From Flavobacteriales bacterium (GTDB taxonomy: Bacteria; Bacteroidota; Bacteroidia; Flavobacteriales_D; Sanyastnellaceae), in the NCBI GenBank assembly GCA_027488055.1, contig JAIYCK010000287.1, positions 1-42,611 on the forward strand: a stretch of 42,611 nucleotides of DNA, given 5' to 3'. Each line of letters begins with the position of its first letter. Positions within the stretch are counted from its first letter, which is position 1. Shown here in pieces: positions 3,421 through 38,602 of the stretch. The translations under genes were made by a program, and so were the position numbers. The notes under the pieces are model-generated. The model did not search any database. It saw only the letters and a program-made list of their open reading frames with translations, and was not told the origin of the DNA.

Positions 3421-3503
3421 TTGAGAATATAAAATTTTGAAGAATCCAAGGGTTGGAAGTCACGCCGTTTTCAGTTACTTTTCACCACAGAACGAATGGC
3501 CCT

Positions 3504-4277: not shown

Positions 4278-4303
4278 ATAGATTAGGACAAATACGTGTG
4301 AGT

Positions 4304-7291
4304 ATGAAAAACCGAATGAACATTCGGTTCATTTTGCTGATAGCCTTTTTGCGATGTGTACCAGCGTGCGCTCAACAATACAACTATTTGCATTATGGCC
4401 TCAAAGAAGGCTTGGTTCAATCACAAGTGAAAACGCTTTTTCAAGACAGCCAAGGGTTTTTATGGGCTGGAACGGTAGGTGGTGTATCCCGTTTTGATGG
4501 CAAGCAATTTAGAAACTATACGCGCCAAGAGGGTTTGCTAAGCAATCAGGTCAATGTCATTGTTGAAGATAAAATGGGCACCGTCATCATTGGTGGAAGT
4601 GGATGTATTTCTTTCATCGATGGATTGGGAGTGCGCAATGTAATTTTGCCTGCGCCATTGGAGGAGGCCACGGTCAATGCGTTGTTCAAACAGGGTGATA
4701 CTTTATGGGTAGGCACAGAACGTGGCCTATGCTACATTCAAGGAGGGGTAGCCACCTTGTCCGAAACGTTGCTGCGTGAGGCACACATCAAGGCGATCGT
4801 TCCGGGTTCTACAGACCAAGCAATGCTGGTATTGACCAAGGAGAGTTTGTACAAATTGCAAAACAAGGACTTGGTCCTTCATTATGCACCCATGCTCAGT
4901 ACCACTCAGTTTTTTGATATGGTGGAAGCACAGGACGGTGGGGTATGGCTTGCCACTAAGGGTGAGGGGTTGATCAAGCTGTCCAGTGATGGCACCAAAG
5001 CACAAAATTTTTTATCTCACTCGTCGCTTTTTACGACAAATATTACGTCGGTGGTGACCGAGGTAAATGGCAGTTTGTGGTTGTCCAGTCGCAATGGTTT
5101 TTTTCGATTCGATGGCGAACGATTTGAAGGGTATGATCAATCCAACGGTCTTGAGGTCACCGATGTCAGAGATCTCTTAGTAGACCGTGAGGGCAATTTG
5201 TGGATTGCAACCTATGGTGGGGGACTTTTGCGGTTGGCTTCTCGCGAGATGGTCAGTTATACCAAGAAGGACGGGCTTTTGGGCAATGCTGTCATGTCAG
5301 TTTTGGATGATGAGCAAGGAGGCTACTGGCTTAGCACCTTTGATGCGGGCCTGCATCGTTTGAGTGGCGATACCATTGTTTCGGTCGAGACAGGAGCTCG
5401 CAACTCGCGCACATGGTGTTCACTGAAAGATAGCAATGGACGATTTTGGTTTGGTACGAGCGATGGTTTGTTAATGAAATCAAGTGGTTGGAAGCTTTTC
5501 ACAGAGGAACAGGGCCTCAATGATAATTTGGTGTTGTCCCTGCTGGAGGATCTTCAAGGACGTATTTGGATTGGCACATCCAAAGGAGTGTGTTGGATGA
5601 GCGATGGCATTGCAAAACAACTTGACTTACCGGGTGCGCCTGCCAAGCGTATACGCGGAATGGCCTTGGACAAAGCAGGCGACATTTGGATTGCGGCATT
5701 GGATGGGGTTTTCAAATTTTCGAACGGCACATTTACCCACTATGACATGCAGTCAGGATTGCCGGAATTGTCTACCTATTGCATCGCGATTGATCCCCAC
5801 AACAGAGCGTGGGTAGGCACTGCTTTCGGTTTGTGCATGTGGACGGGCGATCGGTTCGAATCCCGATTGGTGTCAGAGGTCAATGGTGGCAATGTGATCA
5901 ACTTTATACAATTTAATCGAGGCAAGGTGTGGCTTGGCACCAATGAGGGATTATTTATGACCAAGGTGCGCGATGCATTATCCATTGGATCATATGATTT
6001 TGACCATTTCGATTTGGATGATGGTTTGATCAGCAACGAGACGAATTTGAATAGCGCTTACACCGATCAAATGGGGAGACTTTGGTTTGGGACATCTGAA
6101 GGACTCATGCTCATGCCGTCGGATCTATTGGAACGACCAGCTAGCATGGCTCCAGGTTTGCACTTGTATGATTTGCAGATCAACTTGACCGCACAACAAT
6201 GGGACGGATTCGGTCTAGAGCGCGACGATGTAACTGGACTGCCTATAGGGCTCCAATTGCAGCATTGGCAGAATGATCTTACTTTTTATTTTACAGGTGT
6301 TTCAATCACTTATCCAGCATCGGTCGAGTATCAATATATGCTGGAAGGATTGGATGAGGATTGGAAGCCAGTAACTCCCAATGCATTTGCAACCTACAGT
6401 GCATTGCCTCATCGCGACTACACTTTCGTGGTCAGGGCGAGGCACAAGGGAGGCGTATGGAGTGATCCTGTGCGCTACTCCTTTGGTGTAGCTGCGCCAT
6501 TTTGGTTACGTGGATGGTTTATATGCCTTGAGATTGTGTTGATTGGAGGAGCGCTGACTTGGTTGATTTGGAATCGCAATCGATCGATTCGAGAGCGCCG
6601 AGAGCGCGAGCTATTTGAAATGAAAAATAGAATGTTGGCGTTGGAGCAACAATCGCTCAATAGCAGTATGAATAGACATTTCATTTTCAATGCACTTAAT
6701 TCCATTCAGTATTATATCAATCGACAGGACCGACTGGCAGCCAATAAGTACCTCAGCGATTTTGCGCGGCTCATTCGTAAGAATTTGGACAGCAGTGAGG
6801 ATAATCTTACAAGTCTAGGCGACGAAATTGAGCGTTTGGAAATTTATTTGCGTTTGGAACACATGCGGTTCAAAGATAAATTCGAGTATACGGTAGAGGT
6901 AGATCCAGCATTGTCGCGCGATCGCATCAAGGTACCCGCCATGTTGATCCAACCGTTTTTGGAGAATAGTATTTGGCACGGACTGTTACCCAAAGAAGAT
7001 GGCGAAGTGGGTCGTCTAACGGTACATTTTTACCTCGAGCAGGGACATGTGGAACTTGAAATCATTGACAACGGAATAGGAATAGAAAGGAGTCTGCAGC
7101 GAAAAACGAGTGCTGACAATCACATCTCCAAAGGCATGGAGATCACTCAGAACCGCATAGACTTGATAAAAAAGACGACCGGAAAGACAATTGAACTTAT
7201 TGGGCCTCAGGATATTATGGATAAAAACGGAAAGTCGAAAGGCACAATCGTGAAAATAAAATTATCTGAAGATTTTCACGAACTTTTTTGA
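4304..7291 (+). CDS. Sensor histidine kinase: signal/TM segment, two-component-regulator beta-propeller repeats, Y_Y_Y domain, TM, LytS/YehU-type His_kinase + HATPase
   Basis: Propeller-type repeats recur (WAGTVGGVSRFDG, LWVGTERGLCYI, LWIATYGGGLLRL, IWIGTSKGVCWM, LWFGTSEGLMLM). The Y_Y_Y-like region reads VEYQYMLEGLDEDWKP...YTFVVRAR. A TM segment (FICLEIVLIGGALTWLIW) follows, then the H-box NRHFIFNALNSIQYYI and the N-box IQPFLENSIWHG. The ORF track opens at TTG 4274, overlapping the regulator stop. I prefer ATG 4304 (MKNRMNIRFILLIAFL). Confidence 0.9.
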   Translation: MKNRMNIRFILLIAFLRCVPACAQQYNYLHYGLKEGLVQSQVKTLFQDSQGFLWAGTVGGVSRFDGKQFRNYTRQEGLLSNQVNVIVEDKMGTVIIGGSGCISFIDGLGVRNVILPAPLEEATVNALFKQGDTLWVGTERGLCYIQGGVATLSETLLREAHIKAIVPGSTDQAMLVLTKESLYKLQNKDLVLHYAPMLSTTQFFDMVEAQDGGVWLATKGEGLIKLSSDGTKAQNFLSHSSLFTTNITSVVTEVNGSLWLSSRNGFFRFDGERFEGYDQSNGLEVTDVRDLLVDREGNLWIATYGGGLLRLASREMVSYTKKDGLLGNAVMSVLDDEQGGYWLSTFDAGLHRLSGDTIVSVETGARNSRTWCSLKDSNGRFWFGTSDGLLMKSSGWKLFTEEQGLNDNLVLSLLEDLQGRIWIGTSKGVCWMSDGIAKQLDLPGAPAKRIRGMALDKAGDIWIAALDGVFKFSNGTFTHYDMQSGLPELSTYCIAIDPHNRAWVGTAFGLCMWTGDRFESRLVSEVNGGNVINFIQFNRGKVWLGTNEGLFMTKVRDALSIGSYDFDHFDLDDGLISNETNLNSAYTDQMGRLWFGTSEGLMLMPSDLLERPASMAPGLHLYDLQINLTAQQWDGFGLERDDVTGLPIGLQLQHWQNDLTFYFTGVSITYPASVEYQYMLEGLDEDWKPVTPNAFATYSALPHRDYTFVVRARHKGGVWSDPVRYSFGVAAPFWLRGWFICLEIVLIGGALTWLIWNRNRSIRERRERELFEMKNRMLALEQQSLNSSMNRHFIFNALNSIQYYINRQDRLAANKYLSDFARLIRKNLDSSEDNLTSLGDEIERLEIYLRLEHMRFKDKFEYTVEVDPALSRDRIKVPAMLIQPFLENSIWHGLLPKEDGEVGRLTVHFYLEQGHVELEIIDNGIGIERSLQRKTSADNHISKGMEITQNRIDLIKKTTGKTIELIGPQDIMDKNGKSKGTIVKIKLSEDFHELF

Positions 7292-7970: not shown

Positions 7971-10900
7971 CTATTTCTGAACGATGACCTGGTGGTATTC
8001 TACACCAGTCACAGCAGTCAAACGAACAATGTACTTACCAGCCGCAAGCGCCGAGATATCGATGTTGCGTGCAATGCCATTTTCGAAATTCAATTGCTTG
8101 CTCAATACCACACGGCCAATGTTGTCCAACAAGTCCATATTCACAACACCATTTGCGGCTTCATTGCTGATGTGGATGAATTCGCGTGCTGGGTTTGGAT
8201 ACACACTGAAAGCCAAGCTTTGTAGCTCGTCTACACCAGGATATACACAAGAACCGTCATCGATCGTGGCAGCTGCATTGTAGTTGATAGCCAATGGATC
8301 AGTACATCCATAGATACCACCAGCTGAACAATCATCAGACAATACGCTAGAGGTGAGGAAACAATCAAGGCTGTTTGAATTTACTGCAATCACAACTTGT
8401 GAATCATTGGAGAATGGACCCATGGTGAATGATCCTGGCAATGTCATCACCTGCTGTTGATTGTTCAGGTTGTTGGTGATCGTATAAGGAGCACCGTTAC
8501 CCAAAGCAGCTACTTCTACATCTACATAGAAATTATCTAGGTCACCTTGTTGGCAGTGCACTTGATAGAACATGTTTGGATAGATGCAAGTATACACGCA
8601 TGATCCATCATTGATGGTAGCAAGCGGGTTGAAGTTAAGAGCGTTTGCGTCGGTGCAACCTTCAATTTCTTCGTAAGAGCATGATCCATCATTGATGGTG
8701 GCCGAGCTGTCATAGTTAGTTGCGTTTGGATCCGTGCAGCCAGCGCAAGTGATGTATTCACATGAGCCATCATCAACTACAGCTGCCGCGCTATAGTTAC
8801 AAGCATCTTGGTCCATGCAGCCTTCTGCTAGATTGTAGATACAAGAACCGTCATTGATTGTTGCCAACGGGTTGTAATTCAGAGCTGTGTTATCAGTGCA
8901 ACCCAATACTTCCACAAGCTGGATACAGCCGTTGAAAGGAGGAAGTCCACCACCACAAACGTCGTATGGATCTACTGAAGGCGTGCCAGCGATATCACCA
9001 CAATCATAGCCCCAAGTGCTGCAATTGAAGTTCACATATTGTCCAGCCCACTGATAAAAACCATTGTCTGCAAAATTGTCTCCCAACCAATCCGTTACAC
9101 CGATACTGTGTTGAGTGCCATCACAATCGCAGATTTGAATTTCGTTGTTGCAATTACCAGAGTTGAATGCATAAAGGAATGAGGCTGCACCATCATTGGT
9201 GGTATAGTACATGACGTACTCCGTGTTAGGAGTCAGATTGAAAAGATCGCCCTGATCACCACTTCCGTAGCCATAGATTGACAAATCCAATGGTTCGAAA
9301 GCACCGCCATTGGTTGATAGATACAATGTTTCAACAGTGCAAGGTCCATCGAAATCAAATGTGTAACTCACATGTGGAGTCAAGACATTATTGTAAGAGG
9401 CGCAATCTTCCATCATCACAGTCATGGCAAGATTTTGACAAACGGTTTGCGGACCAGCGCAGAATTCAGCACTGTAACTATAGGTGAAATCAGCACCATT
9501 CGCAAAAATCACATATTGTCCACTTGTCCAATCCCATACTCCGAAAGTTCCATCGCTGAGGCAATCCAATGAGCTCATGCCATCACCAAATGAATCAGCT
9601 ATTTCAAATGTGTAGCATCCTGCTGGCAAGCAAATACTTGTGGTATAGAATGTGTCATCTGTAGTGAAACTACCGGCTGGCAATGTCATTACGAGCGAAT
9701 TGTTGGCATTGTAAACGTTCACAGAAGTTTCGAGAGGGAAACAGTCAGTGGTGACATCGATATCGATGTTGTAGCAAAGTTCATCCACACAACCATTTGC
9801 TGGAGGCAAGAAACCAGAGCAAACACCATATGGGTCGTAGAAAACATCACCCGCTAGTGCACCGTCACCGCAGTCAAAGCCCCATGTAGCACAATAGAAG
9901 TTGACAGGCAATGACAAGTCGCCATTCCAGTAATAAGTGCCATCGTCTTGCGCACCGTCACCGAGCCAAGCAGTGGCCTCAATTGGCAATTGAGTTCCTG
10001 CGCAGTCGCAAATGGTTTCACCGCTCAAACAAGCGTCCGTGATAAAGTTTGTGACCGGTGATTCTGTGCCGTCATCCAACACATAGAACACACTGTAAAC
10101 CGCATCTTGTACGTTGAAATAAAGATCGATCATATCACCTGCACCAAAGCCATACGCAGTCAAGTCAAGGTAAGTATACGTGCCGCCATTGACGGAAGTA
10201 TACACTCCTGCAACAGAGCAAGGACCGTTGTAATTGGCAATGATGGTTCCTGATGGTGTGAAGCTTCCACCTACGGTTTCGATACAACCGGTGTCGATAT
10301 AGTTAATCGTTAAGTTGGTGCAGCTCACTGTTTGGCAGTTTCCAGAAACAAAAGCATAGCTGATAGATTCTGTACCGTCATTCAATACGTAGTAGTAGGT
10401 GTGAACGGTGTTGTCCTCATAGATCATCAATGGAATGGCATCACCGCTGAAGAACAAACCATCGAGTATGATTTCTGTCCAACCTGTAAGTGCAGTGTTG
10501 ATCCAGATCGAGTATACGTTACAATCACCCGTATAGGTTGGGTAGAAGTCTACAAACTGAGCATCACCGCTGCAGCCCATGTCGAATGCATTGGACCCCG
10601 TGAAGGCACATGTATTGATGCAAGCGCCCGTGTTGTAGAACTGCACTGGAGCAACTGATCCGTCTGACAACACAATTTCAAATTGATATTGTGTATTCAA
10701 CTCATAGAGGTAAAGGTTCATCATATCACCTGATGTGTAGCCCAATAAGCTTAGGTCGACATAATTCCAACCTGAATTGATGGTATACACCCATACGCCC
10801 TCTACAGAGCATGCACCTAAATAATCCACGTAAAGAGAAACCTCTTCGGCATCTGTCCAACATGTATAGAAATAGGCGTTTGTGTTGAATATCGAACAAG

Positions 10901-11711
10901 TCGCAGCACATGCCGTGTTTTGAGTAACGGTCAATACGCCATTGATTTGATTGGAAGCACATGGGTATGCATCGATCACAAGATCCAACGTTCCATCAAA
11001 GTTCGCAGTGAAATCCAAAGAGGATGCACCAGCAAAACTGCCGCATCCATCGTCGTCATACAATAAGAATGCGTTAGTCGCATTATCATAAATAGTAAGC
11101 TGAGAATCCCAAGTGGTACCGCACATGCTGACAGTGTAGTTTGCTCCGTTGCATACATCCATGGTGTATGAATCTCCTCCCCACACATTGGTCAAGGTAT
11201 TGAAATCACCAACGAATGCCGTAGAAAGATCACCATAGTAGGTGTTGTCGTTCAAACAGCCGTCTGGGCAATCGCTCAATTGATAGATGGTCAAAATGCC
11301 ATCGATAGAATTGCTTGCGCAATTGTATAGATCCACCAAAACGCGCACTGTTCCTGAGAATGTGGCTGTCCACTGCAATTCAGAGGCACTTTCTGTCAGT
11401 CCATCATCGCAGCCATCGTCGTCGTAACCTAGGTAGGTTCCAACGCCGTCGAATAGGGTAATTTGTGAATCCCAGTTGGTACCACATGTCGAGAAGAGAT
11501 AGGTAGCGCCGCTGCATACCTCGAAATTGACATATTCGCCACCCCAAATGGAGGTTGTTTGAGCGAAATCTCCAGCTTGGCTGGTGACCATTGAGATGTT
11601 GTAAAGTGTATTGTTGTTGGTGCACTGTGCCTGCGCAATCTGAGGCAATAACCAACTCATACACATTACGAAACAGCCCAATAAGATTCCTTTAGTAGAA
11701 TTAATTCTCAT
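7971..11711 (-). CDS. Cysteine-rich mosaic secreted protein with a type-A T9SS C-terminal sorting domain, 1246 aa
   Basis: Signal peptide MRINSTKGILLGCFVMCMSWLLPQIAQAQ. Two PPC-like domains follow (..WDSQITLFD..YDDDGC.. and ..WDSQLTIYD..YDDDGC..). There are four ~95-100-aa modules, two LNR-like Cys modules and five GCTDxxAxNYxxxAxxDDGSCxY repeats. The C-terminal tail is VYPNPAREFIHISNE...GKYIVRLTAVTGVEYHQVIVQK. No catalytic motif was recognised. Confidence 0.9.
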   Translation of the reverse strand: MRINSTKGILLGCFVMCMSWLLPQIAQAQCTNNNTLYNISMVTSQAGDFAQTTSIWGGEYVNFEVCSGATYLFSTCGTNWDSQITLFDGVGTYLGYDDDGCDDGLTESASELQWTATFSGTVRVLVDLYNCASNSIDGILTIYQLSDCPDGCLNDNTYYGDLSTAFVGDFNTLTNVWGGDSYTMDVCNGANYTVSMCGTTWDSQLTIYDNATNAFLLYDDDGCGSFAGASSLDFTANFDGTLDLVIDAYPCASNQINGVLTVTQNTACAATCSIFNTNAYFYTCWTDAEEVSLYVDYLGACSVEGVWVYTINSGWNYVDLSLLGYTSGDMMNLYLYELNTQYQFEIVLSDGSVAPVQFYNTGACINTCAFTGSNAFDMGCSGDAQFVDFYPTYTGDCNVYSIWINTALTGWTEIILDGLFFSGDAIPLMIYEDNTVHTYYYVLNDGTESISYAFVSGNCQTVSCTNLTINYIDTGCIETVGGSFTPSGTIIANYNGPCSVAGVYTSVNGGTYTYLDLTAYGFGAGDMIDLYFNVQDAVYSVFYVLDDGTESPVTNFITDACLSGETICDCAGTQLPIEATAWLGDGAQDDGTYYWNGDLSLPVNFYCATWGFDCGDGALAGDVFYDPYGVCSGFLPPANGCVDELCYNIDIDVTTDCFPLETSVNVYNANNSLVMTLPAGSFTTDDTFYTTSICLPAGCYTFEIADSFGDGMSSLDCLSDGTFGVWDWTSGQYVIFANGADFTYSYSAEFCAGPQTVCQNLAMTVMMEDCASYNNVLTPHVSYTFDFDGPCTVETLYLSTNGGAFEPLDLSIYGYGSGDQGDLFNLTPNTEYVMYYTTNDGAASFLYAFNSGNCNNEIQICDCDGTQHSIGVTDWLGDNFADNGFYQWAGQYVNFNCSTWGYDCGDIAGTPSVDPYDVCGGGLPPFNGCIQLVEVLGCTDNTALNYNPLATINDGSCIYNLAEGCMDQDACNYSAAAVVDDGSCEYITCAGCTDPNATNYDSSATINDGSCSYEEIEGCTDANALNFNPLATINDGSCVYTCIYPNMFYQVHCQQGDLDNFYVDVEVAALGNGAPYTITNNLNNQQQVMTLPGSFTMGPFSNDSQVVIAVNSNSLDCFLTSSVLSDDCSAGGIYGCTDPLAINYNAAATIDDGSCVYPGVDELQSLAFSVYPNPAREFIHISNEAANGVVNMDLLDNIGRVVLSKQLNFENGIARNIDISALAAGKYIVRLTAVTGVEYHQVIVQK
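8592..8903 (-). repeat. Four tandem 81-bp (27-aa) coding repeats (GC[TM]DxxAxNYxxxAxxxDGSCxY). A fifth isolated copy lies at 8241-8309.
   Basis: Residues 937-1040 read GCTDNTALNYNPLATINDGSCIY / GCMDQDACNYSAAAVVDDGSCEY / GCTDPNATNYDSSATINDGSCSY / GCTDANALNFNPLATINDGSCVY, each followed by a 4-aa linker. Residues 1135-1157 read GCTDPLAINYNAAATIDDGSCVY. Confidence 0.9.
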
Positions 11712-11758: not shown

Positions 11759-11902
11759 GGAGATATTCGCTTAAATTGCAATTTTGTGTGACCAAACTCA
11801 GTCATTTTGACTACCTAAAGTGTTAAATGCTCGATACATACGCAGTTTGGAAAATACACTTATGAATGCTCTTACGATTTGTGAATCATCGTTTTAGCGT
11901 GT

Positions 11903-11910
11903 TATTTTTG
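11903..11910 (+). promoter_or_regulatory. Candidate -7 box (TATTTTTG) for the C25 peptidase gene
   Basis: TAnnTTTG match 25 nt upstream of ATG 11935. A TTTG at 11878-11881 could serve as the -33 element. Confidence 0.35.
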
Positions 11911-11934: not shown

Positions 11935-14900
11935 ATGAGATTATTTTTAATTATAATTGGAACACTTTGGTTATCAGCCCGCTGTTTGGGTCAACTTGGC
12001 CATGAATGGATCGATTATAATACTACCTATTGGCATTTTCCTGTCGTTCAGAAAGGATTGCATCGCATTTCATATGATGACTTGCTGCAAGCCGGAATGC
12101 CCGTCAGCAACATACATCCTGCACAGCTGAGACTCTATGCGAAAGGCAAGATGGTTTCATTGCATTTTATTGGGGATTCAGACGAGGTGTTGGAGCAGGG
12201 CGAATACTATTGTGCTTACCTCGATCGTCACAGGGGAGAAATGGAAACCGGCGCATATGGGCTTGAAGCTTATAGGCCTGATAATGAGTATAGCCTCTTC
12301 AATGATACGCTTCACCACTATTTGACCGTCACTCCTGATAACGGGATGCTCATGGCAGAAATAGCCATGCCTTTGGACACAAACCTTCCCATTCATACAT
12401 CTGTGGGATATACGGTTCGCCATGCATTGCATGCTCGATATTATGCGGGACGTGCCGATAACAATGGCGTCTCATTGCCCACGTATGATGAAGGCGAGGG
12501 ATGGTTTGACGAAGCCTTTGGAACTACAACCTACGAGGTAGACTTGCCTTTGACTCACCGCAGCAGTGCATTTAGCTCCGTCCATCTGCAATGGAAAGTA
12601 GCGGGGGTGAATTCTGCATTGGGGATTCCCAATCATCATTTACAAATGGGAGTGGGCACTGATTTTGAGCCTCTTTTTGACACGACGTTCACAGGACATA
12701 AGCTAATTCAGAAGCACCTTGAAGTGCTAATGGATTCGGAAGCAACCACGTTGAATGTGGGCTTCAAAGCAATCAACGATCTCGGGGTGAGTTCGGATTT
12801 GATGGCTCTTGGATCCATGCAATGTACTTACCAGCGATTGCCCATATTCAGTAACACAGCCCCGCATGAATTTATCGTACAAGCGATTGAAGGAACCTCT
12901 TGGACCAAATTACCTCTGTCGCTCCAAGGCTATGTCCAGCCCACCGTTTATCGCATATTGGGTGACCTTGTGCAGCATTTGCCTTTGGTGTTCAACGGAA
13001 CGAATTGGGACGTTTATATTCCGTGGAGTGGCGAATTGCAGCAGCAACTGATCCTGGTAGACCAGAATGCACCATTGTCCATTGTACCGCCTACGCCATA
13101 TACGATGATCGACTATGTCAGCTCAATGGAGGACAATCAATTGATTATTGTGACCCATCGCTCTTTGTGGAATGCTGCGCAGAACTATGCAGTGTTCAAA
13201 CAAGCGAATGGTCATTCGGTTTTGGTATTGGATGCAGAGCAGCTTTATCATCAATACGGAGGAGGAGTCATGAAAAATCCTCTGGCCATTCGACGGTGCA
13301 TGGAGCATGCCTTTTCTTCAGGCATTGCGCCAGGTCATTTGTTCATCATTGGAAAAAGCATTCATGAGTCGCCAGTGAGTGGTGAGGCGGGCGCTCGGAA
13401 TACACCGACACTTTATGAGCGGAATTTGGTTCCCACGTGGGGCAATCCAGGAAGTGATGCATTGTATACTGCAGGACTCAATGGGACACTCTATGAGCCC
13501 GCGATTCCCACAGGCAGACTTGCAGCGGCCAATTCCGATGATGTATTGAATTATTTGAATAAGGTGGTGGAGCATTCCCTCCAACCACCTGCCATGTGGA
13601 AAAAGAATGTGATGCATTTTGGGGGAGGCAGTATTGCTTACGAACAAGAAATATTTCGGTCCTATCTCAATGCTTATAAATCAACTGCGGAGGGGCTGCA
13701 GTGGGGTGCAGAAGTACATGGTTTTTTTAAGAATACTTCGGAACCCATTCAACTTGATGTAAGCGACTCGATTCAGTTGTTGATCAACCAAGGTGTTTCT
13801 GTCATGACTTTTTTTGGCCATGCCAGCAGCACGGGATTTGACCAAAACATCGATGCACCAGAGAATTATAGCAATCAAGGCAAGTATCCTTTGTTGATAG
13901 GAAACTCATGTTATACTGGGAACATTCATTTGGCAGCAGCACAGAGCACGAGTGAACGTTTTGTCTTGGCTCCCAATCGAGGGGTCATTGGTTTTTTGGC
14001 CAAAGGCGATTTAGGTATTCCGACCTACTTGGACATCTACACAGCCAACTTTTATCGCCATTTATTTCAGGTGAGTTATGGCGCCAGCATTGGCACGTGT
14101 ATGCAAAGGTCCATTGCTGACTTCCAAAGTGTTGGCGACTTTTATGAACAGAATGTGGCACAAACCTTCATGTTTCATGGCGATCCGAGCATCATACTTT
14201 TTCCCCATGCACTGCCCGATTTATCCATTGATATCGCCGACGTGATCCTGCCCAACAGCCCACTAGCGGCTTCGAATGAAACAGTTTTGGTGCGTGCTGT
14301 AGTGCATAATATTGGCAAGGCCACAAGTGAGAGCATCGAGGTCGTATTGCGACAACAAACCCCACTGGGCGTGGACACAGCCTATGTGGCTACATTGAAT
14401 GGATTATTGCACAGCGACACCGTGCAATGGATCGTTGCTGGATTGGATGAAGTGGGAACACATCAATTCTCCGTTGAGGTAGATTATCCGGGCAATGCCA
14501 TAGAGGAATTAGAGGAAGCGGCCAACAATGTGGCAAGTGGTATCCAACTCCAAGTGACTGACGGCGATATCCGACCAGTTTATCCATATCCTTTTGCAGT
14601 GATCGATGAGTCACAGCCCATTTTGCGGGCGAGCACTGGCTTTCCGTTAGAGCCTATGCGCAATTATCGTCTGCAAGTAGATACAACGGCGTCATTCGAT
14701 TCACCACTCATGGCAGAACACGACATCGCCTCCGTTGGCGGAGTCATTGAGTGGCCATTGCCATTTGTATTGCAAGATAGCATGGTCGTCTTTTGGCGCT
14801 GCTCATCGATTGGCGGAGATTGGCGCTGGCGCACCGCATCTTTTCAGTATGTGAGCAACCAACGTGGCTGGGGTATGCAACACCGCGATCAATTCAAGTC

Positions 14901-16908
14901 TATCGCAGCCAATGGCGTGAACTACGATGCTCAAAGCATGAATTGGTCATTTGAAACCAGTTCCGTCAATTTGAAGTGCGAAGTATATGGCGCTGCGAAT
15001 TCGTATTATGAGAATTTGGCAACGCGCTATCAATTGAATTTGGATGTCCAAGAGTATGGAGGCTATGGTTACTCCAGTCCAGCTCTGATGGTCGCCGTGT
15101 TGGACAGCGCCACGTTGCAACCATGGAAGAGTAATTATGCAGGTTTAGCCCCCGATTTCGATTTTGGTAATACACTGGCCAGTGCCAATGCCCGCTCAAG
15201 GCAAGAGAAGTATTTTATTTTTCAGCAGTCCGATCCTGTCCAAATGATTGGCCTTGCGAACATGCTCAACAATGAAATAGAGGATGGACATCACCTTTTG
15301 TTGTACACGTGGCAATATGCAATTCCTTCTGCTTGGCCAAATGAATTGACAGAGGCTTTCGACCTTTTGGGACTCAGCACGCTCACAGCTATGGCTGATA
15401 GTCTACCTTTTATTCAGTACATGCAAATGGGCCACTCGGAGAATATGGAGGGTGTCATTGGGCAAAATGCAGAGTCGTTTTTGCAGTTAGAAGTAGACTT
15501 AACAGGAGCTCAAGGATTCGGAATACTGACAACACCAATCATTGGCCCTGCAATGGCATGGGAAGAAACTGAATGGTTGTTCGGTCCTGCAGGGTTGGGA
15601 ACCACAGACTCACAAATGATAGAAACCATCGGTTCAATTCCTGCAAATCCGACCACTTTGGATGCACAAATTGATCAATGGATCAATCCCGGAAATGACA
15701 TAGGTGTGATTGATCCTATGGATTATTCTTTCGTTCAAATGCGAACCGTGCTTTCCGACAGTGCGGCAGGAACCGCTGCCCAATTGAAACGAATGCATGT
15801 GTGGTTTGATGAAGCGCCTGAGTTAGCATTGAAAGGTGAAGATGGATTCTATCGTTCTGCGGATACCATTGCTCAAGGCAATACGTGGAGCATGATGATG
15901 CCTGTGGGTAATATTGGACATGTACAAACGGATAGTGTAAGGGTTTTGTATTATGTTGTGGATTCCAAAGGAGGCATACATAAGTTACCATATGATCGGC
16001 AAGCACCAATGGAAGCAGGCGCATTGTTGCGCGACACCCTGCGCATAGCCACAGCGGACTTACCTGGATTGAATCGCTTGGTGATGATAGTGAATCCGCT
16101 TGACAGCAATACCATGCAGCAGGATCAAAAGGAGCAATTTTATTTCAATAATGTGCTGGAGCTGCCATTTTTTGTGCAAGCAGATAAGGTTCCACCCATC
16201 CTGGAAGTGACCGCCGACGGAAGGCATCTGCTGGACGGAGAAATCATTTCATCACGCCCCGAAATATTGATCAGTTTGCGGGATGAAAACCGATATATAT
16301 GGATGAATGAACTATCGGATACTTCCAATTTTCGCATTTATTTGACCAATCCACTGCAAGAGGTCATGGTGCTTCGATTTGATGATCCAACGATAGAGGT
16401 TGCGCTTTCAAGTAACTCGAATGTGCCATTTCACATTTATTATAGGCCAACCTTCCTGAGGGACGGTATGTATGATTTGAGGGTACAGGCGAACGACAAA
16501 AGCGGCAATCAAAGCGGTGAATTGGATTATCGAATTCATTTTAAGGTGATCAATCAAGCCAGCATCAGTGCGATGATGAATTATCCCAATCCATTTAGCA
16601 CGTCGACCCGTTTTGTTTTCACGATCACAGGGTCAGAGGTTCCAGATGATATCAAAATTCAAATCATGTCAATAGGAGGTGAGGTCGTACGTGAAATCAT
16701 GAAAGACGAGCTCGGCCCTTTGCATATAGGTCGCAACATGACGGAATATGCTTGGGATGGTCGTGATGAATTTGGTGATCAATTGGCCAATGGGGTGTAC
16801 TTCTATCGCACGGTTGTGCGTTATCAGAATGAAGATATGAAACACTTAGAAAGCGCTGCAGATGCATATTTCAAAGAAGGATTTGGCAAGATGTACTTGA
16901 TGCGATGA
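11935..16908 (+). CDS. PorU-like peptidase C25 (gingipain-fold) family protein, 1657 aa, with CARDB-like Ig domains and a FlgD-Ig/CTD-like C-terminal domain plus a tail
   Basis: Signal peptide MRLFLIIIGTLWLSARCLG. The N-terminal block EWIDYNTTYWHFPVVQKGLHRISYDDLLQAG is typical of long Bacteroidota C25 homologs. The catalytic-dyad contexts are MTFFGHASSTGF (His629, codon 13819-13821) and LLIGNSCYTGN (Cys659, codon 13909-13911). A CARDB-like segment reads VLVRAVVHNIGKATSESIEV. The C-terminus is NYPNPFSTSTRFVF...EYAWDGRDEFGDQLANGVYFYRTVV, followed by a ~28-aa extension. Confidence 0.85.
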   Translation: MRLFLIIIGTLWLSARCLGQLGHEWIDYNTTYWHFPVVQKGLHRISYDDLLQAGMPVSNIHPAQLRLYAKGKMVSLHFIGDSDEVLEQGEYYCAYLDRHRGEMETGAYGLEAYRPDNEYSLFNDTLHHYLTVTPDNGMLMAEIAMPLDTNLPIHTSVGYTVRHALHARYYAGRADNNGVSLPTYDEGEGWFDEAFGTTTYEVDLPLTHRSSAFSSVHLQWKVAGVNSALGIPNHHLQMGVGTDFEPLFDTTFTGHKLIQKHLEVLMDSEATTLNVGFKAINDLGVSSDLMALGSMQCTYQRLPIFSNTAPHEFIVQAIEGTSWTKLPLSLQGYVQPTVYRILGDLVQHLPLVFNGTNWDVYIPWSGELQQQLILVDQNAPLSIVPPTPYTMIDYVSSMEDNQLIIVTHRSLWNAAQNYAVFKQANGHSVLVLDAEQLYHQYGGGVMKNPLAIRRCMEHAFSSGIAPGHLFIIGKSIHESPVSGEAGARNTPTLYERNLVPTWGNPGSDALYTAGLNGTLYEPAIPTGRLAAANSDDVLNYLNKVVEHSLQPPAMWKKNVMHFGGGSIAYEQEIFRSYLNAYKSTAEGLQWGAEVHGFFKNTSEPIQLDVSDSIQLLINQGVSVMTFFGHASSTGFDQNIDAPENYSNQGKYPLLIGNSCYTGNIHLAAAQSTSERFVLAPNRGVIGFLAKGDLGIPTYLDIYTANFYRHLFQVSYGASIGTCMQRSIADFQSVGDFYEQNVAQTFMFHGDPSIILFPHALPDLSIDIADVILPNSPLAASNETVLVRAVVHNIGKATSESIEVVLRQQTPLGVDTAYVATLNGLLHSDTVQWIVAGLDEVGTHQFSVEVDYPGNAIEELEEAANNVASGIQLQVTDGDIRPVYPYPFAVIDESQPILRASTGFPLEPMRNYRLQVDTTASFDSPLMAEHDIASVGGVIEWPLPFVLQDSMVVFWRCSSIGGDWRWRTASFQYVSNQRGWGMQHRDQFKSIAANGVNYDAQSMNWSFETSSVNLKCEVYGAANSYYENLATRYQLNLDVQEYGGYGYSSPALMVAVLDSATLQPWKSNYAGLAPDFDFGNTLASANARSRQEKYFIFQQSDPVQMIGLANMLNNEIEDGHHLLLYTWQYAIPSAWPNELTEAFDLLGLSTLTAMADSLPFIQYMQMGHSENMEGVIGQNAESFLQLEVDLTGAQGFGILTTPIIGPAMAWEETEWLFGPAGLGTTDSQMIETIGSIPANPTTLDAQIDQWINPGNDIGVIDPMDYSFVQMRTVLSDSAAGTAAQLKRMHVWFDEAPELALKGEDGFYRSADTIAQGNTWSMMMPVGNIGHVQTDSVRVLYYVVDSKGGIHKLPYDRQAPMEAGALLRDTLRIATADLPGLNRLVMIVNPLDSNTMQQDQKEQFYFNNVLELPFFVQADKVPPILEVTADGRHLLDGEIISSRPEILISLRDENRYIWMNELSDTSNFRIYLTNPLQEVMVLRFDDPTIEVALSSNSNVPFHIYYRPTFLRDGMYDLRVQANDKSGNQSGELDYRIHFKVINQASISAMMNYPNPFSTSTRFVFTITGSEVPDDIKIQIMSIGGEVVREIMKDELGPLHIGRNMTEYAWDGRDEFGDQLANGVYFYRTVVRYQNEDMKHLESAADAYFKEGFGKMYLMR

Positions 16909-16913
16909 AGGCA

Positions 16914-16945
16914 TAAAAAAAGGATGGCTTTTGCCATCCTTTTTT
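16914..16945. terminator. Bidirectional rho-independent terminator shared by the convergent C25 gene and cargo 2 gene
   Basis: aaaaaaaa-GGATGGC-tttt-GCCATCC-tttttt: a 7-bp GC-rich stem with an A-run on one side and a T-run on the other. It lies between stops 16908 and 16966. Confidence 0.8.
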
Positions 16946-16965: not shown

Positions 16966-19900
16966 TTATTCCACAATCATCTTGATCGTCTGAATATTAG
17001 CACCATCCTTGACTTGGATGCAGTAAATACCTGCCTGCAAATCTTGATTTGGATGGATCATAGTTGACAATGAACCATCTACTTGATACGTCTGGTTCAG
17101 AACAATTTTTCCGAGAGCATCGATCATACACACATCAATTGCATTGCTTTTGACGTCGGATGCATTGAGAATAAATCCTTGACCGTTATTTGGGTTGGGA
17201 TACACAGCTATGTGCTGATCATTGCCTTCCTCCATGCGGTGCTTAGCGGGATTAGATTGCGTGATGGCTTCTGTTGCTTCCAACACCGATCCCCCCACGA
17301 AAATGGTTTGAGCGGTTCCGAATACACCTTGGTTGACACCTCCGACACCGAAATTGGGACGAATACGCACGCTGTAATATGATTGCGGCTGAATACTTTG
17401 TCCGGCTGGTGATGTTGTGCCAGGCAATGTGAGCGAAATGATACGAGATGTATTGGTATATGTAAACGGAATACCAGCTGGTGTTGCATCGTTGCAGCCC
17501 ACTATGGGAGTGAACTCGAAGGTATAGTTGGTGACACCGCAAACAAATGGATCAGTGCGCAAAAAAGAAGTAGGCAATAGTGTGGCAGGAGCGGAGCATC
17601 GCTGACCTGAACGCACTTGCAGATCACTGTGAGGAGCGATTTGAACAATGCAACCTGGATTTGAACCATAAACGATAATATCTACATCATCCCCAGCTGC
17701 ATTTTGTAAGGTGTTGTAATTCGCATCGACGATTACATAATAGGAATTTCCCGGAACAAGTCCGAAAGCGTTGTTTCCAAGGCTCACGCTGCCAGTTGTG
17801 GTTAAAGTACCACCACCAATTGATCCAGGCGTTGGCGTGAATGTCACCGTATAAGAATTGGCACCCGTCCATTTTGGCTTGAAAGTGGAACAAATACTTA
17901 ACGGCTGGCTCACGTTGGTTGGGCAGCCTGATCGTAGGAGTTGTTTGATGCAAACAGAAAATCCGCCACCCAGACCACTTGCAGCGCCGACAGAGACATA
18001 ATATGTTTGGCCAGGCGTAAGACCATTGAAATTGAGTGTTTCAGTACCTTCGGTCGCAGAGCTTGCGTTTTCGGTGCCGCCAATAACTGGGCTGAATGTG
18101 GCATCAAGCAATTGGATCGCTCCATCCATATTGGTGTGGCTAAGTTGGATACTAACACTGGGTAAATCTGCCACAAAGCTATACCATACATCGGGTCCGA
18201 TATAGGCATTGCTTTCGTTTGAGTTAGTCGCATTCGAACAGTTACCACTGTAGGTAGCACATTGTGGGTACCACGCATTGCCGCCAGGAACAAATGCTGC
18301 ATTGGATGGTCCATCATTGGCTGGTGGACAAATACTACAAGAAGCATAACATACTACATTCAAGGTCATGTTTGCTGCAGCTAAAGTGAATGAACGATTG
18401 CCACTTGTGTTGCATCCGCCGGGTACAGTTTCATCTTGTCCCCATGCATTACCATTCACAAATTTGTAATAATATGTGGTGTTTTCAGGCATACTCAAAG
18501 TCACCGTATAAATACCATCGGCATTTCCATCCGACATGGCCGTTGTAGCCGGATTCCAATCTTGGAAGGAACCAGCTATGTGCACTCCTTGGGGAGAAAC
18601 GGTTTGTCCAGACATATCTACTTGGAAGGTCACATCGTAATTCCCATTGGGACAGTCTGCGCACAGTCCAAAGCAGACTGTTGACAGAGAGACGTTCGAT
18701 GTAGCCACAGCTCCTGAGCGGTTGGTGGAAGTAGCACATGCGCCAGGCACGGACTCAGCATTCGGCCAGTTATTTCCGTTGATGAATTTGTATTGGAAAG
18801 AAGTGTTTTCCGGGATACTTACCGTGACGGTATAGACACCATCGAGGTCAGGATCGGTCATAAGTGTAGTCGCAGGAAGCCATCCTTGGAAGCTGCCTGC
18901 TACGTGCACGCCATTTGGACTGACCGTTTGTTGACTCATATTGACGGCAAAAGTGACATCGTAATTGGCAGCTGGGCAAACAGTACAAAGTGCGTAACAA
19001 ACCACAGGGATGGTCATATCGCTATTGCCCACTGTCACCGAACGATTGCCGCCAGAATTGCAGGCACCGGGCACAGTCTCAGCATTCGGCCATCCATTGC
19101 CGTTGATGTATTTGAACGGATAAGTTACTCCTTCGGCAAGAGGCAAGGTGATCGTATAAATACCATCGGCGTCAAGGTCGGTCATCTCCGTGGTGGCTGG
19201 ATTCCAACCTTGGAAGGGACCGGCCAAATGCACCCCATTGCCGCTCACTGTGGAGCTGCTCATGTTGACTTGGAAGGTTACATTGCGGGTAGGAGGGCAT
19301 GCGGCACATGCATTCCAACAAACCAAACCTACAGAGGCGTCTGCATTTCCAACCGAATAAACACGGTTGTTGCCATCACCACATGGAGCGCCAATGTTGC
19401 CTTCGTACGTAGCGCCATTCAAGAATTTGTAGGAGATGTTGGTGTTTTGAGCCACCGATGTAGTGTATGTATAAATGCCACCACCTGAATTGGTCATGGC
19501 GACGGGTGTGAAGCCATTGAAAGATCCGGCGATTTTTACAGTTCCTCCAACGAATTCTTGGCTCATATTTACTTCAAAGGTGATATTCACAGGAGGCAAC
19601 GGGGTATTTACACTATAGGTGTAATTTCCACCTCCATTGCGGTGCTGATGGATGGCTACCTTATCCGCATCAGCAATGGTGGGATTGCTGACAGTTGTTG
19701 TAAACAGATAATATGACACTACAGCTCCCGCGCTTTGCGGAGGAATAGCCGCTGTACCTGTGGAGCCCACGAAACTTACTGGAACTAAAGAAGAGGACGA
19801 AAATCCATCGGTGGAATAACGGATGTATGCTAGTTCTTCTGGACTTGGAGCTGCGCTAGCTGTTACGGTCAACGTAACTGCGTCGGAACTTGTAATATTC

Positions 19901-20400
19901 CCATTGGTAGGAGAGCTGGAAATACCGCTAACCGTAATGGGTTGGGCCGATGTTTCCATGAAAATTAGCTGCGTATTGGTATAACCAATGTCTACCCAGT
20001 TCATTGTATACCATTTATTGTTGGCTATGGTTATTGTATGGTTGCCTCCGCCAAAAGAGCTCGTTTGCAATCCATTGAAGGCAATTGTTGCTCCTCCCCA
20101 TCCATTGGCCCAATAGTTTGATGTAGGACCGCTAGAGAGTTTGAATTGGTAGGTGCCTCCAACCAAATTGCCGCCTGAGGCTGCTACACTGAACTGTGTT
20201 TGCCATTTGCGCGTGCCAAAGCCAGTTACGGCCAAAGTGCCACCAGCGCCTTGGTTGGGATTGCGCAATACAGGATTGGTTGGTGCATTGGTCCAGCTAT
20301 CCCAGGCACCGGGCATATTCAATCCTTCGGGCTCATAAATTTGAGCGAAATACAGCGAGCTGATGGCCAATAGCCACGCCATGATCAAAAACTTTTTCAT
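16966..20400 (-). CDS. Secreted multi-domain protein with four tandem CBM20/48-like (starch-binding/E-set type) modules and a type-A T9SS C-terminal sorting domain, 1144 aa
   Basis: Start set at ATG 20400 (MKKFLIMAWLLAISSLYFAQ, a signal peptide). Four ~105-aa repeats have the form VTFxVNMS..V..GVHxAGSFQGWxPATTxMxD.D.DGIYTVT....YxYKFxNGNxW...ExVPG.C..S.NR....C...C..CP. A PPC-like segment follows. The tail is VYPNPNNGQGFILNASD...AGIYCIQVKDGANIQTIKMIVE. Confidence 0.88.
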   Translation of the reverse strand: MKKFLIMAWLLAISSLYFAQIYEPEGLNMPGAWDSWTNAPTNPVLRNPNQGAGGTLAVTGFGTRKWQTQFSVAASGGNLVGGTYQFKLSSGPTSNYWANGWGGATIAFNGLQTSSFGGGNHTITIANNKWYTMNWVDIGYTNTQLIFMETSAQPITVSGISSSPTNGNITSSDAVTLTVTASAAPSPEELAYIRYSTDGFSSSSLVPVSFVGSTGTAAIPPQSAGAVVSYYLFTTTVSNPTIADADKVAIHQHRNGGGNYTYSVNTPLPPVNITFEVNMSQEFVGGTVKIAGSFNGFTPVAMTNSGGGIYTYTTSVAQNTNISYKFLNGATYEGNIGAPCGDGNNRVYSVGNADASVGLVCWNACAACPPTRNVTFQVNMSSSTVSGNGVHLAGPFQGWNPATTEMTDLDADGIYTITLPLAEGVTYPFKYINGNGWPNAETVPGACNSGGNRSVTVGNSDMTIPVVCYALCTVCPAANYDVTFAVNMSQQTVSPNGVHVAGSFQGWLPATTLMTDPDLDGVYTVTVSIPENTSFQYKFINGNNWPNAESVPGACATSTNRSGAVATSNVSLSTVCFGLCADCPNGNYDVTFQVDMSGQTVSPQGVHIAGSFQDWNPATTAMSDGNADGIYTVTLSMPENTTYYYKFVNGNAWGQDETVPGGCNTSGNRSFTLAAANMTLNVVCYASCSICPPANDGPSNAAFVPGGNAWYPQCATYSGNCSNATNSNESNAYIGPDVWYSFVADLPSVSIQLSHTNMDGAIQLLDATFSPVIGGTENASSATEGTETLNFNGLTPGQTYYVSVGAASGLGGGFSVCIKQLLRSGCPTNVSQPLSICSTFKPKWTGANSYTVTFTPTPGSIGGGTLTTTGSVSLGNNAFGLVPGNSYYVIVDANYNTLQNAAGDDVDIIVYGSNPGCIVQIAPHSDLQVRSGQRCSAPATLLPTSFLRTDPFVCGVTNYTFEFTPIVGCNDATPAGIPFTYTNTSRIISLTLPGTTSPAGQSIQPQSYYSVRIRPNFGVGGVNQGVFGTAQTIFVGGSVLEATEAITQSNPAKHRMEEGNDQHIAVYPNPNNGQGFILNASDVKSNAIDVCMIDALGKIVLNQTYQVDGSLSTMIHPNQDLQAGIYCIQVKDGANIQTIKMIVE
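18328..19590 (-). repeat. Four tandem ~300-315-bp coding repeats (CBM-like modules), diverged to roughly 50-60 percent amino acid identity by eye
   Basis: In ORF-track numbering, the repeats span residues 302-400, 403-507, 511-615 and 619-722 of ORF 16966..20493. Confidence 0.85.
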
Positions 20401-20547
20401 TGGTTTGTTTAGATTAAGGATAATTAAGGTTTGCCAAATCGATGACCTGCATACAATTAGGCACACGAATTTAACTAAGTGTATTATTGACACCTATCAA
20501 AGACGGCCTAATTTATGTATAATTATTGTAAGGCTAAGGTTATGGAA

Positions 20548-23778: not shown

Positions 23779-25971
23779 TTATTGTTTTGCTACCATGGTT
23801 GTGGAGCGATTCGTGCCGTCAGTTAATACTACAGTGTAGTATCCATTCGCCAATGGAGCGAAATCAAGCACAACAGTGTTGCTGCCTTCGATGGCGGCAT
23901 AGTTGTGGCTCATGATCAAGCGTCCAGTTACATCCATGATTTGGATGGTGGTGTTAGCGTTTTCTGCAGTGTTGAATTTCACATTCAGTTTGTCAGAAGT
24001 TGGATTCGGATAAGCTGAAGTAATTGCAATCGCCTGCACCTCTTCGATGGCCATTGGCTCAACGATTGCTTCTTCGCTTTCACGGAATGCGATTGAGCTG
24101 ATACTTGCGCGGAAAGTGTAACACAAAGAGGCATTGAATGCACCGTTGTAACCATACACTTGGATTTTGTATGTACCAACGGTTGTTGTGTTGAAGATGA
24201 TCACTTCACTAGTGGTGCCTGAATTTTGAGAAATTCCAATTTGGGTGCCACTTGGGTTATACAATCTCACATCATAATCAGCGGGCAAACCGGTGATATC
24301 GATGCGGATATTGCGATTTGCAGTTGTATTGGCAAACTTGAACCAATCTTTGTCTGTCGAGGAACTGATTCGTGCAGTGAGATTCGTATTTACCGCAATT
24401 GTTTTTGCAGTACCAGTGGTATTGTTGTTCTCGTAATTATCCGTGCAAGTAGTTGAACTGGTTGTAGAGAAGGTTGTCACTGCAGTGTTAGCGCTAGTGC
24501 CCGCGCTGCAAACCGTTTGAACACGTGTGTTGTAAGATGTACCTGCTGTCAAGCCAGTCAATACGAAGGAAGTGCTTGTAGTGCTAACCGTTGTGTAAGT
24601 CGCAGCAGAAGCTAATTTGTATTGGAAGTTGTAGCTGATCGCGCCGCTAGCTGCAGTCCATGACACAGTTGCACCGGTCTGAGTAATTGCAGATACGCTT
24701 GGAGTTCCAGGTGCATTGCAAGTCACTGCGCTTGTAGTGCTGAAAGTACCGGTAGCAGAGAACACGCTTGTGCCAGAGCTACACACTGTTTGAACTTGCA
24801 CATTGTATGATGTGCCAGCAGTTAGACCAGTTAATCCAAACGACGTAGAAGTGGTGTTAACAGAAGTCCAAGTGGTTGCAGTCGACAACTTATATTCGAA
24901 GTTGTAGCTCAAAGCGTTTGCAGCTGCAGTCCAGCTGATAGTCGCTGAGTTTTGTGTAATAGCAGAAGCTGCAGGTGTACCAGGAGCATTGCAAAGATTA
25001 GGATTTGGTGCTCCGCAACCGTTGCTAGTCAAGAGACCTGCACGGAATCCACCAGAAGCAAACAAAGCTTGCATGCGGGAAGCTTGGCCTGTAGAGAACA
25101 TGTACATACATGCATCGTCTGTGTAGTCCATGTAGTTCATGAACATATCACCATTCGGGCCATTAGAGCAACTCACTTGAGGGAAAACAGGGCAGCCATA
25201 GTTTTCGTCAGCTTGGTTAGGCGTGTCGCTAACGCTATCCGTACCTGTGCAGCCGGTGCCATCGTCACCCCAAATGTGGTAAAGATTCAACCAGTGACCC
25301 ACTTCGTGCGTAGCAGTGCGACCTTTGTTGAAAGGAGCAGTGGCAGTGCCAGTCGTACCGTAGTATTGATAGTCAATTACAACGCCATCTGTGCTTGCGC
25401 TGCCGCCAGGAAACTGAGCGTAGCCCAAGATTCCGCCAGAGATATCACAAACCCAAATATTGAGATACTTGGTTGCATCCCAAGCATTTTTACCACCTGA
25501 TGTGCTGAACTTTACACCGTCATTGGTGCTGAAAGAAGTGGCTGTGGTAGAGGTACGAGTGATACCAGTAGTAGTCGCTCCATTTGGATCTGTAGAGGCC
25601 AAGCAAAACTCGATGTTTGCATCTGCAGCTAGTCCTGAGAAAGCAGCAGGTACGTTCGCCGCATCGCTGTTGAGCTTGCGGAAGTCAGCATTCAAGACAT
25701 TAATTTGAGATAGGACTTGAGCATCGCTGATGTTTTCAGCGGTAGTGTTGTACACCACGTGAACGACAACTGGGATGGTCACCAACGCACGGTCTCCACC
25801 GTTGTTGCGTGTCCATTCTTCTGTAAAAGCTTCGATTTGCTGACGCTTTTCGATCACTTGTGGGTCTGTTGACATCTGCTGAAGATGTTCCATCGAACCA
25901 CAATTTCTTTGCGCATTGGCAAAAGTCACAGCCATTGCAATGGCAGCTACCATTGTAAAAATTTTCTTCAT
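23779..25971 (-). CDS. Secreted zinc metalloprotease, M43 (cytophagalysin/pappalysin-like) + 2 FN3 domains + PPC-like domain + type-A T9SS C-terminal sorting domain, 730 aa
   Basis: Signal peptide [21 protein letters not shown]. Zinc site [11 protein letters not shown] (codons 25276-25308), then [13 protein letters not shown] (Met-turn region). Two 91-aa FN3-like repeats are present. The tail is [16 protein letters not shown]...[21 protein letters not shown]. Confidence 0.9.
24448..24993 (-). repeat. Two tandem 273-bp coding repeats (FN3-like modules)
   Basis: The two copies are [36 protein letters not shown]...[17 protein letters not shown] and [36 protein letters not shown]...[17 protein letters not shown]. 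Confidence 0.85.
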
Positions 25972-29681: not shown

Positions 29682-29693
29682 CGAACGACGAAA

Positions 29694-38580: not shown

Positions 38581-38602
38581 GGGTGCAGGGCATTGATGCA
38601 TT

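Follow-up and report, generated by a model that had tools for sequence, protein, structure and literature searches.

A PorU2-family C25 peptidase gene of the Sanyastnellaceae: relation to the type IX sortase PorU, a conserved C-terminal module and pairing with porV2 in most of the family

The protein treated here is a relative of PorU, a C-terminal signal peptidase and transpeptidase that joins type IX secretion system (T9SS) cargo proteins to anionic lipopolysaccharide (A-LPS) that PorZ supplies; this removal of the cargo C-terminal domain, with attachment to anionic lipopolysaccharide, is known for the PorU of P. gingivalis only (PMC4560394, PMC8545088). Here we describe a gene at positions 11935–16908 of the forward strand in contig JAIYCK010000287.1 of a Flavobacteriales bacterium (Sanyastnellaceae; assembly GCA_027488055.1). 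The whole stretch analysed, 42,611 nucleotides (nt) from position 1 of this contig, is called the window. It belongs, as an unremarkable member, to the widespread family that NCBI has named PorU2, and the reading that we favour, with moderate confidence, is that its product is a sortase-like C25 peptidase acting on the C-terminal domains of T9SS cargo. The uninterrupted open reading frame (ORF) begins with ATG and encodes 1657 amino acids (aa) plus a stop, exactly as a first-pass annotation of this DNA had delimited it.

11935..16908, + strand: porU2-family gene (ORF; match to NF052324; more than 120 full-length homologs)

The family assignment comes from curated profile hidden Markov models (HMMs). 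The protein scores 593.4 bits (E 7.9e-178; cut-off 450) against NF052324, 'PorU_rel_Nterm, putative type IX secretion system sortase PorU2', with residues 5–865 aligned to profile positions 4–879 of 879. The first-pass annotation had pointed to a second PorU-like sortase type among long Bacteroidota proteins, and rightly: the curated NCBIfam model exists and the window protein passes it. Against the canonical PorU model, NF033707 (T9SS_sortase), the score is 176.3 bits with a cut-off of 420, in two stretches within residues 31–770 only, and identity as canonical PorU is rejected because of this shortfall. A full-length top match to canonical PorU, named at the outset as the result that would speak against a separate type, did not occur (176 versus 420 bits). 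The N-terminal block that had been likened to long C25 paralogs does hold a family signature, EWIDYN...W, in which W25 is invariant and N23 and E24 are near-invariant. The nearest relative of the window protein is 61% identical, and a Sanyastnella coralliicola relative with 41% identity carries the UniRef name PorU2. Searching the literature for 'PorU2' returned no genuine match (the lone text match was 'PorU' with a citation number attached to it), no paper on a Sanyastnella genome or its T9SS was retrieved, and a T9SS phylogeny published in PeerJ does not separate PorU and PorU2.

The length of the protein is a property of the family. Most of the full-length homologs, recovered in a search of 5.8 billion proteins at 99–100% query coverage, have 1600–1761 aa, and they come from Flavobacteriales, Crocinitomicaceae, Cryomorphaceae, Bacteroidia and metagenome-assembled genomes (MAGs) labelled Chlorobi. 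The 44 family members that were aligned range from 1640 to 1761 aa, with a median of 1675. The protein had been called over-long, which is true against canonical PorU only (the 6za2 chain has 1156 aa, and NF033707 has 1095 positions); 1.6–1.8 thousand residues are the family norm. A scan of one genome per GTDB species detected PorU2 relatives in at least 525 species genomes, spread over Flavobacteriales, Bacteroidales, Chitinophagales and Saprospiraceae; cultured carriers include Terrimonas ginsenosidimutans, Pseudoflavitalea, Flaviaesturariibacter amylovorans, Fluviicola taffensis, Lishizhenia and Sanyastnella coralliicola. When residues 867–1540 (674 aa) were searched alone against 1.84 billion representatives, 825 clusters at 50% identity were matched at E <= 1e-30. 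This block lies at about residues 880–1560 in every full-length protein (approximately 1600–1815 aa) among the best 150 matches, and the shorter matches look like fragments. A gene fusion or an assembly artefact was rejected as the source of the extra length, given the identical full-length architecture in hundreds of independent assemblies.

Profile searches and two AlphaFold models, one of residues 1–870 and one of residues 860–1657, gave the following layout.

11935..11991, + strand: predicted signal peptide, aa 1–19 (hydrophobic N-terminus MRLFLIIIGTLWLSARCLG, then Q; modelled helix at residues 2–16)
11992..13143, + strand: N-terminal PorU-like beta-rich domains, aa 20–403 (NF052324 coverage, AlphaFold, Foldseek)
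13144..14193, + strand: Peptidase C25 catalytic domain, aa 404–753 (PF01364, E 6.9e-53)
13819..13821, + strand: predicted catalytic His629, FFGHASS within VMTFFGHASS (invariant in 44 of 44; aligns to RgpB His211)
13909..13911, + strand: predicted catalytic Cys659, GNSCYTG within LLIGNSCYTGN (the same in all 44 sequences; profile counterpart of RgpB Cys244 and of the Cys in the PorU active site)
14215..14532, + strand: CARDB-type immunoglobulin-like (Ig-like) domain, aa 761–866 (PF07705, 26.7 bits, cut-off 22.7; all-beta in the model)
14569..14850, + strand: beta-sandwich, aa ~879–972, first domain of the family-specific insertion (strands only in the model; approximate boundaries)
14866..15429, + strand: alpha/beta domain, aa ~978–1165, aligned to the ILEI/FAM3-like domain of homologs (sole helix-containing domain of the C-terminal model)
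15430..16554, + strand: array of about four beta-sandwiches, aa 1166–1540, the last Big_13-like (model, Foldseek, profile)
16555..16905, + strand: PorU-like C-terminal domain, aa 1541–1657 (profile match to the PorU C-terminus)

The model of residues 1–870 (predicted local distance difference test, pLDDT, 90; predicted template modelling score, pTM, 0.88) finds its best Foldseek match in the PDB in the crystal structure of latent PorU, 6za2 (E 8e-31, about 970 columns). Kgp and RgpB are also matched, well behind PorU, at around 1e-18 over some 500 columns. A single-sequence phmmer search of the PDB returned nothing relevant and missed 6za2; PorU and RgpB were reached by the family profile only. 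Window protein and NF052324 family share length class, domain order, dyad, and conserved N- and C-terminal motifs. Canonical PorU agrees with the window protein in its N-terminal domains, in the C25 core and its His/Cys dyad, in the Ig domain after that core, in the last Ig domain plus the C-terminal domain, and presumably in its chemistry, but it lacks about 500 residues (window aa ~870–1500), including the alpha/beta domain that is ILEI-like in homologs. The gingipains RgpB and Kgp share the catalytic fold and the dyad, with a structural likeness confined to the catalytic and Ig part, and differ in having a pro-domain of their own, modules of the haemagglutinin/adhesin kind and a C-terminal domain of type A that is cleaved. 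The earlier figure of about 600 residues ahead of the core is right if counted to the His, whereas about 400 aa precede the C25 domain; the figure of about 1000 residues past the active site stands, 998 following Cys659.

The match to Pfam Peptidase_C25 (PF01364) scores 180.6 bits with a cut-off of 23 and places the protein in family C25 of clan CD. His629 and Cys659, together with His561, are invariant in the 44-sequence alignment, which extends down to 25% identity, and the family profile aligns the pair with His211 and Cys244 of RgpB (1cvr) and with the equivalent PorU residues (6za2). Both motif contexts had been read correctly at the first pass, as had the 30 residues that part them, a spacing kept in 38 of the 44 sequences; the comment that this is the gingipain spacing was mistaken, the gingipain dyad being 33 apart. 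Each of the two residues lies two positions past one of two consecutive strands (623–627 and 653–657; block pLDDT 92–93), and their position directly after successive strands fits the active-site topology of clan CD. From its sequence, then, the dyad is predicted to be catalytically active. The long beta-sandwich stalk suggests a structural role, and one might picture a catalytically dead pseudo-peptidase acting as a scaffold in a surface complex; we consider this highly improbable, since the invariance of His629, Cys659 and the surrounding motifs across such divergent sequences would be hard to explain without catalysis.

The region downstream of the core had been described as CARDB-like Ig segments plus large stretches that could not be assigned. 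The CARDB-like part was correctly seen, scoring above the Pfam cut-off, and the stretches left unassigned resolve to conserved beta-sandwich domains and a single alpha/beta domain whose counterpart in homologs is ILEI-like. With Foldseek, the C-terminal model (pLDDT 87) retrieves Ig, FN3 and macroglobulin-type arrays, plus the PorU C-terminus, and a weak Big_13 match lies at residues 1482–1529. The Pfam ILEI model (PF15711; FAM3, ILEI and the POMGnT1 stem) is matched above its cut-off of 27, at 29.8–37.8 bits, in all five homologs scanned; four of these matches were mapped, and they align to window residues 1086–1167, where the window model is mixed alpha/beta. To our knowledge, no T9SS role has been described for the FAM3/ILEI fold. 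Domains of this fold, the POMGnT1 stem included, bind N-acetylglucosamine (GlcNAc) and other sugars (PMC9802357), and by analogy the alpha/beta domain may be a glycan-binding module.

At the C-terminus the resemblance to PorU returns. The family profile aligns residues from about 1506 onward (the last 150 or so) with PorU 1003–1144, which is the terminal Ig domain and the C-terminal domain, and it matches the PorU C-terminus (22 bits, 2e-4) and the FlgD Ig domain. Of all known domains tried, that of PorU itself gives the C-terminal domain its best alignment. No other part of the protein is conserved as strongly as this domain, with a mean column conservation of 0.64–0.81 versus about 0.6 in the catalytic core. 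It scores under the cut-offs for cargo sorting domains, both type A (TIGR04183, 13.6 bits, cut-off 23) and type B (CHU_C, 13.5 bits, cut-off 27), and PF18962 was not reported; toward the C-terminus there are faint Pfam signals of FlgD_ig, CHU_C and Por_Secre_tail. At the other end of the protein, Gln occupies alignment column 19 or 20 in 38 of the 44 homologs. Bacteroidota signal peptidase I substrates are cut before Gln (the 'Q-rule'), and because of this rule the signal peptide is probably removed just before Gln20.

In canonical systems porV usually adjoins porU. In the PorU2 family the partner gene is porV2, and it lies upstream: neighbour clustering of 88 PorU2 loci revealed, directly 5' of porU2 and on the same strand, a gene for a protein of about 365 aa, often with a 4-nt overlap. 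The product scores 399–556 bits (cut-off 325) against NF052325, 'putative type IX sorting system protein PorV2', and remains below the PorV and PorQ cut-offs. Counted from PorU2 with HMM detection, PorV2 is linked in 64 of the 75 copies that have upstream DNA (around 85%) and unlinked in 11. The reverse test, a metagenome scan anchored on PorV2, found PorU2 immediately downstream in 68 of 77 cases, with nine PorV2 orphans. In most lineages porV2 and porU2 form an overlapping two-gene operon. HMM searches of the flanks (+/-10 kb) of the 88 PorU2 loci detected no second C25 or PorV-family gene, and we know of no PorQ or PorZ link for PorU2. At locus L004 (10001–19905) a pair of diverged PorU2-family genes, coding for 1640 and 1656 aa, stands in tandem with 11 nt between them and lacks a neighbouring PorV2; around the pair are glycosyltransferase and sulfotransferase genes, which may indicate a tie to surface polysaccharide synthesis. 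Four PorV2–PorU2 loci (L021, L039, L056 and L065) come from MAG records labelled Akkermansia, Competibacteraceae, Chryseobacterium gleum and Verrucomicrobia, and these are most likely mis-binned or mislabelled Bacteroidota contigs.

This reciprocal pairing bears on whether PorU2 might be a gingipain-like T9SS cargo protease, that is, a large C25 endopeptidase, secreted or on the surface, that would serve nutrition or adhesion and take no part in sorting. Such an enzyme would likewise have the C25 fold and an intact dyad, and ordinary type A cargo genes do flank porU2 in the window; however, tight operon pairing with a PorV/PorQ-family barrel is not what a cargo protease would lead one to expect, nor is a C-terminal domain that is PorU-like, more conserved than any other part and under the cut-offs for both types of sorting domain, A and B. 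In the Foldseek comparison given above, the first 400 residues and the overall architecture are far nearer to PorU than to the gingipains, and the architecture is uniform over four Bacteroidota orders, unlike that of the variable cargo proteases. We therefore hold the cargo protease to be improbable and keep to the reading of PorU2 as a sortase-like peptidase.

A further alternative accepts sorting and makes PorU2 and PorV2 the only sortase and shuttle-anchor pair of their carriers, replacing canonical PorU (and PorQ/PorZ). No canonical PorU or PorV gene occurs in the 1.7 Mb of flanking DNA around the 88 PorU2 loci, although flanks of +/-10 kb are uninformative on a genome's other parts. The PorV and PorQ models give PorV2 nearly the same score, which is what a merged role predicts, but PorV is also required at the SprA/Sov translocon, and PorV2 is a poor match to it (below the NF033710 cut-off). 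The extra lectin-like domain of PorU2 could stand in for PorZ, and PorU2 was not seen in model organisms among the matches listed, whereas the NCBI names PorU2 and PorV2 imply a second copy. Complete replacement is, in our judgement, doubtful, and PorU2 as a sortase-like enzyme acting on cargo C-terminal domains remains the preferred reading.

The window itself belongs to a clade in which the two genes are separated. Its closest relatives (L001, L085, L086, L087 and L002), the Sanyastnella locus L175 and the MAG locus L177 are also without PorV2 at the locus. In a neighbour-joining tree the window and the first five form one clade nested among linked clades; L175 and L177, fetched afterwards, are outside the tree, and L175 is placed in the clade because it shares synteny with L002. 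The orphan PorV2 proteins of L111, L134, L153 and L121 form a clade at the corresponding position in the PorV2 tree, and members of this orphan clade sit downstream of hemA-hemC-hemD. A MAG of the window's clade (GCA_034408895.1) holds an unlinked PorU2, MDZ4824616.1, and an orphan-clade PorV2, MDZ4823954.1, has an accession 662 away; from this proximity the two probably belong to one genome. The Sanyastnella PorV2 is absent from the best 120 PorV2 matches. The simplest reading is that one rearrangement split the pair and that both genes were kept, which would hold for the window's organism too; the porV2 of its clade is probably elsewhere in the genome, beside hemA-hemC-hemD. At loci from two organisms (L168, positions 6001–7140, and L169–L174), an orphan PorV2 gene stands directly 3' of hemA-hemC-hemD with COX15/CtaA nearby; the PorV2 proteins of these two organisms share 63% and 71% identity with the L153 query, and the site is a stable alternative gene location.

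As we picture it, PorU2, a homolog of the T9SS sortase PorU, would be a cysteine peptidase of clan CD (C25) exposed on the cell surface. It would be exported by Sec, with its signal peptide probably cut before Gln20, and then moved over the outer membrane by the T9SS by way of its own PorU-like C-terminal domain. That domain would be kept, as in PorU, and would dock the enzyme on the PorV/PorQ-family outer-membrane beta-barrel PorV2. The His629/Cys659 dyad would free a set of T9SS cargo proteins of their C-terminal sorting domain; these proteins, by analogy with PorU, may be transferred to an amine-bearing surface glycolipid. The 500 or so residues absent from PorU (beta-sandwich spacers and the alpha/beta domain) may bind the glycan acceptor or set the distance of the active site from the membrane. 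The sortase-like C-terminal signal peptidase function is thus modelled on PorU, and we put forward the substrates, the retention of the C-terminal domain, the docking on PorV2 and the glycan binding in the same conditional sense. A bolder version, which we offer tentatively and think rather unlikely, is that PorU2 and PorV2 make up a self-contained two-protein attachment machine, in which PorV2 merges the roles of PorV and PorQ, the ILEI/FAM3-like domain replaces PorZ in holding the glycan acceptor, and a dedicated cargo subset is anchored to a glycan other than A-LPS. If true, such a machine would operate in hundreds of environmental Bacteroidota species without a studied model.

Several points weigh against the favoured reading. 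The placement of His629 and Cys659 was judged from strand topology. The window protein itself gives no ILEI (PF15711) match at E <= 0.1, and profile matches to the FAM3B and FAM3C structures are non-significant (E 0.5–0.9). An HMM search of the six-frame translation of the window found no PorV2, so that its partner is deduced from relatives only; the PorU2 and PorV2 trees are neighbour-joining trees without support values, and PorU2 and an orphan PorV2 are assigned to the same MAG from the nearness of their accessions and not from an assembly record common to both. Finally, we found in the literature no experimental study of any PorU2 or PorV2 member.

In the window, porU2 is a lone transcription unit, with a divergent 5' neighbour and a convergent 3' neighbour, and two elements bracket it.

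11878..11910, + strand: candidate Bacteroidota-type promoter (TTTG at 11878–11881 and TATTTTTG at 11903–11910)
16916..16945, + strand: intrinsic terminator hairpin (stem of 13 bp, flanked on either side by A and T tracts; lies between the convergent genes)

The two promoter motifs are 21 nt apart, and the second ends 25 nt 5' of the porU2 ATG. The Bacteroidota promoter consensus is TTTG / TAnnTTTG, and the motifs are a putative promoter on this ground. A sigma-70 promoter scan of the window gave chance-level matches only, and tRNA and Rfam scans of the window gave no matches.

Three genes for T9SS cargo or cargo-like proteins lie around porU2, together with other genes worth recording.

7971..11711, - strand: gene for a 1246-aa protein, divergent from porU2, with a type A sorting domain (PF18962/TIGR04183) as its sole recognisable feature
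16966..20493, - strand: gene for a 1175-aa T9SS cargo protein, convergent with porU2, that combines starch-binding modules (CBM20/CBM48/AMPK1_CBM) with fn3 and a type A sorting domain
23779..25971, - strand: gene for a metallopeptidase of 730 aa, of the M43 (pappalysin) type, that carries fn3, PPC and a type A sorting domain; the third T9SS cargo gene within 12 kb of porU2
3453..7291, + strand: gene for a LytTR response regulator, followed by that for a 1005-aa sensor kinase (Reg_prop beta-propeller, Y_Y_Y, His_kinase)
36151..38601, - strand, and 1624..3420, + strand: large ORFs of 816 and 598 aa without any Pfam or NCBIfam match
28125..31361, + strand: adjacent glutamyl-tRNA synthetase-like and glutaminyl-tRNA synthetase-like genes, 12 nt apart

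The divergent neighbour is also present in L085, and in L001 a cut gene on the same strand fills that position; the convergent starch-binding cargo gene is kept downstream in L001 and L085 and is not family-wide. The neighbouring cargo genes were considered as dedicated substrates and rejected, being conserved just in these closest relatives and not across the PorU2 family. The LytTR/sensor kinase pair occupies the same upstream position in L085. The sensor kinase scores 72.7 bits against the PorZ model, below the cut-off of 260, probably just from common propeller repeats. The remainder of the window consists of housekeeping genes.

Curated NCBI models already capture both the PorU2 family and its pairing, and the window gene is therefore a member of a known, experimentally untouched kind. 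What we add is that the extra length is a conserved module including an alpha/beta domain, lectin-like (ILEI/FAM3) in homologs, that porU2 and porV2 are reciprocally coupled, and that cultured carriers exist. PorU2 and PorV2 constitute a second enzyme–barrel pair of uniform architecture in at least 525 species, until now a database label only, and the coupling, the module and the cultured carriers together offer a testable entry into cargo sorting and anchoring beyond the Porphyromonas model.

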